Program-made: the position numbers
Origin: a virus
Taxonomy: Duplodnaviria > Heunggongvirae > Uroviricota > Caudoviricetes
Length of the DNA stretch: 24,178 nt
Virus record (IMG/VR): IMGVR_UViG_2537561992_000036
Reading direction: 5' to 3' (one strand)
Shown here: in pieces, positions 3,001 to 6,000 of the stretch
How the letters are laid out: every line of letters begins with the position of its first letter
Position numbering within the stretch: position 1 is the stretch's first letter

Positions 3001-6000
3001 GCGTCATGGGGAGCGCCGAAGTGATGACCATAGATATTCTTTTTCAGGCCACATGCGATTGAGGCAAGAGTTGCGCTACTGATGCCAACATCGCCAGTCG
3101 ATTGCCATTTCAAAACCTTCATAGACAAATCTGACATTTCTTGTCTCCAATAAAAAAAACCTCCATCAGGCGGCTTGGTGTTCTTTCAGTTCTTCAATTC
3201 GAATATTGGTTACGTCTGCATGTGCTATCTGCGCCCATATCATCCAGTGGTCATAGCAGTCATTGATGTTCTCTGCTTCGATAACTCTGTTGAATGGTTC
3301 TCCATTCCATTCACCTGTGACTCGGAAGTGCATTTATCATCTCCATAAAACAAAATCCGCCGTAGCGAGTTCAGATAAAAGAAATCCCCGCGAGTGCGAG
3401 GATTGTTATTCATTGCCGATATTCACCTTTATCGCGAACACCTTTACCGGTTTATCACCGAAGTGCGGATGTGTGATTGTCTTGATTTCATATCCGTCAT
3501 ACGGAACATCAATTCTGCGGCTGGAATCGTCGCGCTTCGGATATCCCTTTGTGATAATCAGGCGGTCATACTCCCGGAACATAATTCGCTTATTCCAATA
3601 GTCATTACACAGGCGATACTCTTCCGTTTTCTCTCCTCGAATCATGGCATCGAAGTATTCACCTTTGACGGCAAGTTGTAGGTTAGCCACGGTTAACCTC
3701 CTGCGGAGTAGCCTTTACAAGCACTGGTGCAAATCCATCTTCATTAAGGTTATGAATATAGACTTCTGTTCTCCTGCGCTCTTCAACGTTTAATATTGTT
3801 TCTGGATCATAAACCCATACTTTCATTCGACTATTCCATGAAGAAATCGCTTCAGATCTAGTTCGTTTTTCTGGTCCTTGGGCACCACATTTGCATGACA
3901 CATAGCGCATTTTCCCTCTGATACTGAATGAGTATCCGATGTTAAGCACAGTGGAACCACAGAATGGGCAGCGATATAGATTCATAAATCATCCACCTTA
4001 GGCGCAGCTGAGACAGCAACATTCCAGAACTCAGAAAACATATTGTATGCACCAGATAGATTGGAAGTAGCATACCCTCCAAGCTCACTTCTAATCTGAA
4101 CGGCTCTCATCATTTCCGGGGTTAACTCCTTCGGCACCATAACCCAACCATCCGGAGTTACCGGAGAGTTGCCACCGGGAATATTTTCCGGAATATTTTG
4201 TTGTGCGTTTTGTGGTTGTTCTGATTTACCCTGAAGCATGGCGGCGCGGCAGGCGTTCCAGCCAGCTGTTCGCCCAAGCGCGTAAACTTCAGATGGATCA
4301 AGATAATCAATGTCATGCCCGTCCTCATCGTCGTTCTCAGGTAATGCAGCAGGTACTACCGGTACTGGCGGAGCGGCGTAGACCTCAATAATTCCATTAT
4401 CAATAGGCCATTCTCCATCCTTGAGGTAGTCACTTGTGCCGTCAACTTGCTGTTCTGCAATGTGGAATGCACCTATTGGTTTTGCTTCCAGCGATGCCAG
4501 AGCAATCCGTGCCAGTTCCATTTGTTCGCCACTAGTAAGTCCGTTATCAAGCGGGGATTTAATGAACAATTCGATACGTTCTTTAGTGATAGTGCTCATA
4601 TCACTCTCCTTTGATGCGAATGCCAGCTGCGCTTGCTGATTCTTCATATGCGCGTTTAGCAGCGTTAAGGATTGCTGCCAGTGGCGTATAGCCGCCATCC
4701 ATTCGGATTGTGTTGTGGATGCCAGCCATTGTGTCGCGCAATTTGCTGTGGCTAGCAGACAGTTCTGCTATGCACTTCTCTGCGGCATCGGCTCGATCTT
4801 TTTCACGCTGGAACATTTTGTGAGTGCGGTCTATAGCTTCGATTCGTGCCGCTGATGTCTTCTGCACGGCTTCAAGCTCAACACGCAGCTTCCCAACCGT
4901 AAGAGCAATATCCTCGTTCTTCTGGTCGCGGCGTTTGATGTATTGCTGGTTTCTTTCCCGTTCATCCAGTAGTGCCAGCACGGTTTCTGGCCCGGTCAGA
5001 AATTTGAAGGCGTTGAGCGCATCAATATCCACACCGTAATCCTTAAGTTCCTGTTCAGTTAACAAATCATCATCAACTGGCAACATTAACAGGCGTTCCA
5101 TTGCCGGAATTGCACGCTCTGCCGCCTCACGCAGTGCCTGATAGTCAATCTTGCTCATTGGATGACTCCTTTACGAAGCTGTTCGGCGATATCTTCGAGA
5201 ACGCCATCAGAGAATGAACGGTCAAAATCGCCTTCCGGCGCATTGGCCATAAACTCAGTAGAGGTAAGAATCATCCGGGCAATATCAGCGGCGTTCTTCG
5301 CAGTATCATCAATAAAACCAGCTTCCCAGGCAGCCAGCATTCTGTTCGCCACAAAGTAAGCGCCCTCCTTGCGTGCTTCAGTCTTCACTTCAGCCAGAAA
5401 AGCATCGGTGGCTGGGGTTTCAGTAATATCATCTTCCCATTCGCTAAACTCCTCACGACAAAAGTCATTAAATTCCTTCTCAGATTGCTTAAGCGAGGAA
5501 TTTTCAGCAGCCATCTTCGCGCATTTAGCCTCAAGGTTATCAATCGTGATTCCAGCAGAACGACACTCCCGCAACGCCGTTTCTAGTTTTGATTCAAGTT
5601 CACCGAACTTACGGACAAGATATTCATCGTTTGTTTCGTCAACCTTTAAATCACTTGGGATGCATTTACCTTTCAGAAAACCATCCATCTCAATTAGTGT
5701 CATTTGTTTCATTTCTTCCCACTCCGCCACATCGCATTCAGATATTTGTTGTCATTAACAGAACCGAAACTCTTTCTCTTAAGCAATTCCTCTCTCGATG
5801 GCATTGGCTTTGCGCGTTGGCGAATAATCATTTCTGCCGGAAGAATGCCGGGATTGTATGCAAGTCCTCTCATGGTAAATTCCTCAGTCATTACTGATAG
5901 CGCCATAGCGTGAGCGGTAATTACGCAGGCGCGGGTCAATTTCAGGGAAGTGGGTATATGTGGCTTTGCGGAATGGTCGGATTGATGTCTGGTAAATTCG

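Follow-up and report, generated by a model that had tools for sequence, protein, structure and literature searches.

Overlapping Lar-family and ASCH-fold genes in the early-left operon of a Stx1a-converting prophage are probably independently assorting accessory genes

Gene content and setting of the locus

Two overlapping open reading frames are found on the minus strand of the window, i.e. the entire 24,178-nucleotide stretch of caudoviral DNA analyzed here, exactly where the first-pass annotation had placed them: a Lar-family gene with an ATG start coding for 100 aa (3683-3985; stop codon 3683-3685) and a predicted ASCH-fold gene with a GTG start coding for 94 aa (3406-3690; stop codon 3406-3408). 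The Lar-like and ASCH-like names are already in use in RefSeq for these genes in public E. coli genomes. Also as annotated, both genes belong to the early-left (pL) operon of a lambdoid prophage. They occupy the end of the operon nearest int; read leftward, the genes are erf, ssb, abc2, Ea22-like genes, Lar, ASCH, two small ORFs, xis and int. The host element is a Stx1a-converting lambdoid prophage, and the region matches, at 100% DNA identity, the Stx1a-converting phages LC744181-4 as well as prophages of E. coli O26/O103 that occupy the lambda att site.

Directly upstream, an Ea22-like (phrog_60) gene occupies 3982-4698 on the same strand, and its stop codon overlaps the Lar start codon in an ATGA configuration (3982-3985). 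The true start of this upstream gene is likely M34 at 4599, which would yield a 205-aa product, because the PHROG alignments of the protein start at residue 34 and agree with the starts of the homologous upstream proteins in viral loci, which begin MSTITKERIELF. On the other side, a consensus scan recovered a terminator-like GC-rich hairpin with a T-run on the minus strand (3373-3404), directly 3' of the ASCH stop codon. A search with PADLOC returned no match for either the Lar-like or the ASCH-like protein.

The ASCH-fold protein

The protein contains the GxKxxExR motif reported in the first-pass annotation (G19-E-K21-T-E-E24-Y-R26, encoded by 3613-3636), and G19, K21, E24 and R26 do not vary among 35 homologs, nor do the polar residues R35, R43, Y50, D55, R59, Y64, K70, T73 and H74. 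It matches phrog_625 at 173 bits, a large family in its own right that is mostly found in phages and prophages: a clustered protein database yielded 671 homologs, and at E<=1e-3 the representative clusters number 1282, while the gene itself is present in 1560 E. coli genomes and this mini-ASCH family in about 29% of the complete ones. The protein scores below the Pfam gathering threshold for PF04266 (14.3 versus 21.2 bits, with the match confined to residues 6-28), the matches of 19 among 35 family members to this model are all sub-threshold (best E-value 0.013), and none of 10 distant representatives rises above it; NCBIfam holds no match, PDB sequence searches with the protein and with the family profile recovered no meaningful match and no ASCH structure, and hhalign comparison of the family with E. 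coli YqfB revealed no similarity. There is likewise no similarity to RcbA of the Rac prophage.

Structure comparisons point to the ASCH fold. The predicted secondary structure shows a β1-α1-β2 arrangement (strand 2-8, helix 10-17, strand 23-27), and an AF2 model (pLDDT 81.5) used as a Foldseek query recovered ASCH proteins as all of its top 13 matches, with probabilities up to 0.97 and moderate TM-scores of about 0.5. In two independent structure searches with the predicted model the best matches were all ASCH structures. The minimal ASCH proteins (PDB 3iuw, 2z0t, 1xne, 1wk2), YqfB and ZmASCH resemble it in the predicted PUA-like barrel, in the β1-α1-β2 unit with GxKxxExR and in size (roughly 80-110 aa), whereas its identity to solved ASCH structures in structural alignments is 12-24% and its score lies below the Pfam ASCH threshold. 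Thus, motif and predicted fold support a minimal ASCH/PUA-like β-barrel that most likely binds nucleic acids or nucleosides. Since the Lar-like protein exceeds two curated cut-offs (see below), and the ASCH-like ORF has its 173-bit phrog_625 match and many homologs, the motifs and reading frames are not chance features.

Such a protein might instead be an enzyme of the YqfB/ZmASCH type, i.e. an N4-acetylcytidine amidohydrolase or a ribonuclease, whose substrates would be RNA or nucleosides of the host or the phage and whose role would be unrelated to restriction. YqfB and ZmASCH do appear among the top structural matches, and the family retains the many invariant polar residues listed above (K21, E24, R26, R35, R43, Y50, D55, R59, Y64, K70, T73, H74). 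Against this, sequence similarity to YqfB is undetectable, a Glu occupies the position of YqfB Thr24, a residue with a catalytic role, on inspection of the sequences, and the best structural match is an uncharacterized 80-aa protein (3iuw). We accordingly regard this enzymatic role as rather unlikely.

The Lar-family protein

HMM searches bear differently on the two family assignments of the first-pass annotation: while the ASCH-like protein falls short of PF04266, the Lar-like protein belongs to the Lar family at curated thresholds, with 58.7 bits against TIGR03655 (cut-off 39.6) and 35.7 bits against PF14354 (cut-off 28.6), both over residues 2-54. The PHROG family phrog_599, 'Lar-like restriction alleviation protein', aligns with residues 1-99. 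A PDB sequence search returned nothing meaningful, and a tblastn search with a lambda Ral query detected no Ral-like ORF in the window.

The N-terminal Lar domain (residues 1-54; 3824-3985, minus strand) carries the Cys cluster and WNxR motif that had been noticed on first reading, namely C6-x2-C9, C31-x-C33 and W50-N-S-R53, and from this pattern is predicted to form a four-Cys zinc ribbon followed by a WNxR helix. Residues C6, C9, C31, C33, W50, N51 and R53 are invariant in our Lar-family alignment, and the Cys and WNxR signature is common to RalR of the Rac prophage and 54 viral homologs; the dN/dS of this domain is 0.06-0.16. It is followed by a conserved 46-aa C-terminal extension (residues 55-100; 3686-3823, minus strand), which is absent from Rac Lar and which recombines as a separate unit at one of the viral loci (L094).

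The gene is present in 154 E. coli genomes, and as 132 of these copies are at least 99% identical they are largely clonal. One might consider the 100-aa protein a distinct Lar subfamily, in which the extension would confer a target other than a type IA enzyme, and the mini-ASCH protein a host-takeover or counter-defense factor reading modified nucleotides, and wherever the two are present together they might cooperate; we consider this scenario quite unlikely.

The Lar-ASCH junction and the Sf6 deletion

The translational-coupling geometry described in the first-pass annotation holds up in detail. The two ORFs overlap by 8 nt (GTGGCTAA, 3683-3690), and the junction as a whole (AGGAGGTTAACCGTGGCTAA, 3683-3702, minus strand) comprises an AGGAGG Shine-Dalgarno sequence (3697-3702) within the end of the Lar gene, the ASCH GTG start codon 6 nt downstream of it (3688-3690) and the Lar TAA stop codon (3683-3685). 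Across 70 related loci the ASCH start codon varies only between GTG (54), ATG (13) and TTG (3), while GGAGG is constant upstream in all of them, which supports the assigned start site.

The same overlap junction places at least 10 unrelated gene families upstream of ASCH in viral contigs, and most of these upstream partners end in ...PQEVNRG* with the same 8-nt overlap. This shared tail was considered as a functional tag and rejected: its residues are dictated by the Shine-Dalgarno sequence (CAG GAG GTT) and by the ASCH start codon with the codons that follow it (C GTG GCT AA), and other classes of junction carry different tails. As ASCH has both its ribosome-binding site and its start codon in the last codons of whichever gene lies upstream, its translation is predicted to be coupled to that gene. 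The junction may then be viewed as a mosaic boundary sequence common to many unrelated upstream genes, and the adjacency of Lar and ASCH would therefore represent one recombinational combination.

Shigella phage Sf6 presents a case in which the two genes have been separated. Its gp20, annotated as 'Lar-like restriction alleviation protein', is 97% identical to the Lar-like protein over all 100 aa and is likewise preceded by an Ea22-like gene with the same kind of overlap. Unlike here, ASCH is gone, having been cleanly deleted between two 11-nt direct repeats with an 11-codon remnant left; the Lar gene and the terminator-like hairpin downstream of the deletion are both kept. In the window the corresponding repeat (AAAGGTGAATA on the gene strand) is found in ASCH codons 9-12 (3656-3666) and again near the ASCH 3' end (3420-3430).

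Phyletic distribution of the gene pair

Lar and ASCH are probably independently assorting accessory genes that are adjacent by descent in one young lineage and do not form a two-gene functional unit. When viewed from the ASCH side, a Lar gene of any kind lies within 2.5 kb on only 5 of the 80 viral contigs that carry ASCH. Viewed from the Lar side, in a census of 54 Lar-family viral loci grouped by identity, ASCH lies beside Lar at 6 of 10 loci of the near-identical lineage, at none of the 10 loci with 70-82% identity and at one of 33 distant loci, where the match is weak (L118); downstream partners of the Lar homologs include DUF4752, NinX and genes of unknown function. In divergent lineages the two genes did not occur together beyond what shared descent explains, unlike a conserved gene pair. 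A weak positional or functional association of the two genes is nonetheless conceivable, given the L118 locus and an Enterobacter cloacae prophage in which an ASCH gene lies 126 nt downstream of a Lar homolog with 66% identity.

These counts also bear on the suggestion in the first-pass annotation that the pair is an anti-restriction module, in its dedicated form a two-gene system in which Lar and ASCH act together and translational coupling sets their stoichiometry. The 8-nt overlap with its strong Shine-Dalgarno sequence would suit such a module, as would the presence of ASCH directly downstream of Lar in 131 of the 154 Lar-carrying E. coli genomes and the adjacency in E. cloacae despite the divergence of its Lar. 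However, the scarcity of Lar at ASCH loci, a junction through which ASCH is joined to 10 or more unrelated genes, and the rarity of ASCH beside Lar outside the near-identical lineage all speak against it; furthermore, most paired copies are clonal (>=99% identity), the viable phage Sf6 has Lar without ASCH, and so does the Rac prophage. A dedicated module is thus highly improbable, and the suggestion is not sustained. Rather, lambdoid mosaicism accounts for the pairing.

Restriction alleviation, toxicity and the integrity of the Lar gene

By homology with Rac Lar, the Lar-like protein would be made early after infection or induction and may bias an EcoKI-like type IA restriction-modification enzyme of the host away from cutting unmodified phage DNA and toward its methylation. 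Such an anti-restriction activity of the 100-aa protein is suggested by analogy with Rac Lar, its single characterized relative, at 34% identity. The first-pass annotation stated in general terms that Lar proteins alleviate host restriction. To the extent that PMC3177214 recounts King & Murray (1995), this has been demonstrated only for Rac Lar against EcoKI, whereas the same protein, as RalR, was reported not to inhibit restriction-modification (PMC4041452); the statement thus has a basis in one protein but is disputed for that very protein. The phage lambda Ral protein is comparable in its early leftward expression and its presumed phenotype of EcoKI restriction alleviation and modification enhancement (PMC3177214, PMC12707154); it differs in being unrelated in sequence and in that ral adjoins N in lambda.

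Rac Lar/RalR of E. coli K-12 shares with the protein studied here the CPFCG...C-x-C signature and WNxR (34% identity over 53 aa), a location close to xis/int in the early leftward part of a lambdoid prophage and an overlap of 8 nt with the ORF that follows. It differs in that it is 64 aa long as opposed to 100 aa, the additional length here being the 46-aa C-terminal extension, in that the second Cys knuckle is CxC and not CxxC here, and in that the downstream gene is rcbA in Rac and ASCH-fold here. RalR has been described as a non-specific DNase toxin controlled by RalA, an sRNA encoded antisense to rcbA that pairs with the toxin mRNA over 16 nt, 11 of them contiguous; a K52Q mutant is inactive, and mutations abolishing toxicity or DNase activity map to positions 14, 37, 39, 49, 51 and 52 (PMC4041452).

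This raises the alternative that the locus is a type I toxin-antitoxin system of the RalR type, in which the Lar-like protein would be a non-specific DNase toxin and an sRNA antisense to the downstream gene its antitoxin. The homology to RalR and the similar Rac layout (ralR overlapping rcbA by 8 nt, RalA antisense to rcbA; PMC4041452) could be adduced for it. We nevertheless consider it highly improbable. Residues C14, R49 and K52 of RalR, which are linked to toxicity (PMC4041452), are all Ser here; among the toxicity positions only N51 is clearly conserved, and 37 and 39 align ambiguously. No sigma-70-like promoter or terminator was found on the plus strand of 3406-3690, the longest stretch common to the Lar gene and 3301-3690 is 8 nt, in contrast to the 16 nt (11 contiguous) of RalA, blastn against the Rac ralA/rcbA region revealed no similarity and Rfam has no match in the region. 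Moreover, the ORF downstream codes for a strongly conserved protein. A RalA-type antitoxin, which is present in Rac, was accordingly rejected for this locus, as the Rfam, promoter and terminator scans, the repeat searches and the blastn comparison with Rac ralR-ralA were all negative.

Finally, RefSeq PGAP (in NC_013361 and other genomes) annotates the Lar gene as a fragmentary pseudogene 'missing C-terminus' together with a separate 47-aa hypothetical protein, but decay of this kind is practically untenable given a single uninterrupted 100-codon ORF, full-length homologs with 66-97% identity in Shigella, Escherichia and Enterobacter, purifying selection on both halves (dN/dS 0.06-0.28) and a phrog_599 alignment that spans residues 1-99. 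The intact 100-aa Lar-family gene is thus systematically mis-annotated by PGAP, which splits it into a pseudogene and a 47-aa ORF.

Implications

For the Lar family, the 'restriction alleviation' label rests on one protein of disputed function and is not equivalent to a demonstrated anti-restriction activity. Enterobacterial prophages carry members of the mini-ASCH family extremely often, and as the family is entirely uncharacterized it is a reasonable target for accessory-gene screens.

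Organization and genomic setting of the gene pair

The first-pass annotation described two overlapping small genes, which the ORF listing confirmed: both are on the minus strand, the Lar-like ORF at 3683-3985 (100 aa, ATG start) and the ASCH-like ORF at 3406-3690 (94 aa, GTG start). Their overlap is 8 nt: the junction reads ...CAG GAG GTT AAC CGT GGC TAA on the gene strand, with GTG GCT AAC... in the +2 frame and AGGAGG six bases 5' of the ASCH GTG. At its other end, the Lar gene shares an ATGA between its own ATG and the stop codon of the gene before it. As called, this upstream ORF (3982-4698, minus strand, 238 aa) has 98 nt in common with the gene that precedes it (4601-5158); because its PHROG alignments and homologues begin at M34 (MSTITKERIELF...), translation probably starts at 4599, for a product of 205 aa. 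Directly 3' of the ASCH stop codon, within the pL operon, a GC-rich hairpin and the T-run behind it resemble a terminator (3373-3404, minus strand); this candidate terminator is also kept in the Shigella phage Sf6.

Over the 801 bases around the gene pair, four Stx1a-converting phages (LC744181-LC744184) match the window at 100% identity, as do prophages of Shiga-toxin-producing E. coli (O26, O103 and related strains). The prophage of O26:H11 strain 11368 adjoins ybhC at the lambda attachment site, with the leftward order erf, anti-RecBCD (abc2), Ea22-like genes, Lar, ASCH, two small ORFs, xis and int. This gene order, together with PHROG matches in the window to Erf (6584-7219), SSB (6201-6674) and Abc2 (5884-6177), all on the minus strand, bears out the proposed placement of the pair in the early-left operon at the sequence level.

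Elsewhere in the window, two 100% identical IS3-family (IS600-like) copies of 1316 nt each (9177-10492 and 14121-15436) stand in inverted orientation, each with an ALIL frameshift pseudoknot (Rfam RF01497; 9517-9633 plus, 14980-15096 minus). They flank 3.6 kb containing a P-like helicase-loader gene (11755-12426), and the left copy marks the end of a sieB-like ORF (8963-9184). The layout is composite-transposon-like, or else a possible inversion of the immunity/replication region.

Family assignments

The Lar-like protein passes curated cut-offs for TIGR03655 (58.7 bits versus 39.6) and PF14354 (35.7 versus 28.6), and hits phrog_599 ("Lar-like restriction alleviation protein") as well, so the Lar-family claim stands. 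The predicted Cys cluster and WNxR are present as C6/C9, C31/C33 and W50-N-S-R53, and the four Cys, W50, N51 and R53 are invariant in the family alignment. The HMMs cover only residues 2-54; the other 46 residues are without a Pfam match. The closest relatives form a narrow family of 12 clusters in a large protein database, with Sf6 gp20 97% identical and Enterobacter homologues 66-70% identical. Against five diverged homologues, Nei-Gojobori dN/dS lies at 0.06-0.16 in codons 1-54 and at 0.16-0.28 in codons 55-96; these low values in both halves show that the entire 100-codon ORF is a real gene. RefSeq PGAP instead splits it, at NC_013361 892537-892839 and in other genomes, into a Lar pseudogene "missing C-terminus" and a 47-aa hypothetical protein (WP_000870097.1 or WP_000870096.1), which we reject as an annotation error given the dN/dS and the full-length homologues.

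The ASCH assignment holds at the level of fold and motif and fails at the Pfam threshold. The Pfam ASCH match (residues 6-28) scores 14.3 bits versus a cut-off of 21.2; matches occur in 19 of 35 close family members, every one sub-threshold, and none of ten distant representatives reaches the threshold, one giving a weak DUF3850 match. No match was found in NCBIfam, PDB sequence searches, the family profile included, found nothing, and hhalign detected no similarity to YqfB. The protein matches phrog_625 (function unassigned there) at 173 bits, and its family comprises 671 clusters by word-indexed search, nearly all named "ASCH domain-containing protein" by NCBI, and 1282 representative clusters at E<=1e-3 by full HMMER scan. 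The first 13 places in Foldseek are all ASCH structures (probability up to 0.97, TM-score about 0.5), and the GxKxxExR motif noted at first pass (G19-x-K21-x-x-E24-x-R26) is invariant in the family, which supports a predicted divergent, minimal ASCH fold. Thus, the family assignments are largely right, for Lar at curated thresholds and for ASCH at fold and motif level only. Identical sequences in RefSeq carry these family names, so the finding is already known.

The coupling signal travels with the ASCH gene

The proposal that the pair forms an anti-restriction module is unsupported, and the data speak against it. Among 80 ASCH-carrying viral contigs, just five have a Lar-type ORF within 2.5 kb, and the position directly 5' of ASCH is taken by genes from at least ten unrelated families, among them those of DUF551-like and Ea22-like proteins, a 94-aa hydrophobic protein and an 86-aa protein. 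Most of these partners end ...PQEVNRG* and overlap ASCH by the same 8 nt. The junction DNA, CAGGAGGTTAACC[G/A/T]TGGCTAA (window 3683-3706; viral loci L008-L087), is conserved with GTG (54), ATG (13) or TTG (3) as the only ASCH start codons, and the unrelated genes that run into it, 10 families or more, are all forced to end in ...QEVN[R/H/L]G, with R, H or L corresponding to GTG, ATG or TTG. The coupling signal thus belongs to the ASCH cassette and marks a mosaic boundary; it is not specific to Lar and ASCH as a pair.

In Sf6 (about 3010-3100 of locus L002) the ASCH gene is precisely deleted between 11-nt direct repeats (AAAGGTGAATA; window 3656-3666 and 3420-3430, inside the gene), with 236 bp lost; the Lar gene is retained, as are 11 codons of ASCH and the hairpin beyond it. 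Sf6-like 'NHG' variants (L097, L099, L103, L105) probably carry the same deletion.

From the Lar side, ASCH accompanies Lar in six of ten near-identical-lineage loci, none of ten at 70-82% identity and one of 33 distant loci (L118, a weak ASCH-like match) among 54 Lar-family viral loci. Other downstream genes include DUF4752 (E. coli E-93), NinX (L094) and unknown small genes. Modest counter-evidence comes from E. cloacae, where one prophage has a Lar of 66% identity and an ASCH gene 126 nt downstream; both genes tend toward the int-proximal operon end, a bias that alone makes adjacency more likely. In 5426 complete E. coli genomes, ASCH occurs in 1560 (2133 places), the Lar-like gene in 154 and the pair in 131; 132 of the 154 Lar copies are at least 99% identical, so most paired copies are one clonal prophage lineage.

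In L094, where the Lar-like gene lies in the nin region beside ninX and a terminase gene, not near int, codons 1-54 have diverged (pS 0.60) and codons 55-96 are nearly identical with zero synonymous differences, a pattern that indicates a mid-gene recombination breakpoint at the domain boundary. A 74-aa metagenomic protein (P0012) joins a lambda-N N-terminal peptide (PF11438) to the C-terminal 24 residues of the Lar-like product, and is either another mosaic joint at the gene's 3' end or an assembly chimera. Separately, several distant Lar-family proteins (L124-L127, L129) appear to carry a fused C-terminal DUF551-like segment (WQPIETAP..., recognized by eye), and in Enterobacter prophages (L088-L092) the Lar-like gene directly follows a Pfam-annotated DUF551 gene. 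Lar may therefore be linked more strongly to DUF551 than to ASCH.

Functional considerations

Lar (RalR) of the Rac prophage has been reported not to inhibit restriction-modification and is described instead as a toxin with non-specific DNase activity, kept in check by the sRNA RalA, whose gene lies antisense to ydaC/rcbA, the next ORF downstream; mutations at positions 14, 37, 39, 49, 51 and 52 lower its toxicity, K52Q being inactive (PMC4041452). The 8-nt ralR/rcbA overlap in K-12 Rac resembles the layout here, and a toxin-antitoxin reading was therefore tested and rejected, every test being negative: RcbA and the ASCH protein are dissimilar; no sigma-70-like promoter or terminator lies on the plus strand of the ASCH gene; the Lar gene and the 390 bases after it share at most 8 nt, against 16 nt (11 contiguous) for RalR/RalA; blastn showed no similarity to the ralR-ralA region and Rfam gave no match here; and RalR C14, R49 and K52 are each Ser in the window protein.

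According to PMC3177214, citing King and Murray 1995, EcoKI restricts more strongly once the Rac-encoded Lar is removed, and both Ral and Lar are believed to promote de novo methylation through an unknown mechanism. Lambda Ral accelerates first-strand modification by type IA enzymes via the HsdM N-terminal domain (PMC12707154). Most likely, the two are accessory genes that are independent of each other and were brought together by mosaic recombination among lambdoid phages. The ASCH protein would have a nucleic-acid or nucleoside target. By analogy with RalR, a functionally disputed relative 34% identical over 53 aa, the Lar-like protein may act as a modulator of type IA restriction-modification.
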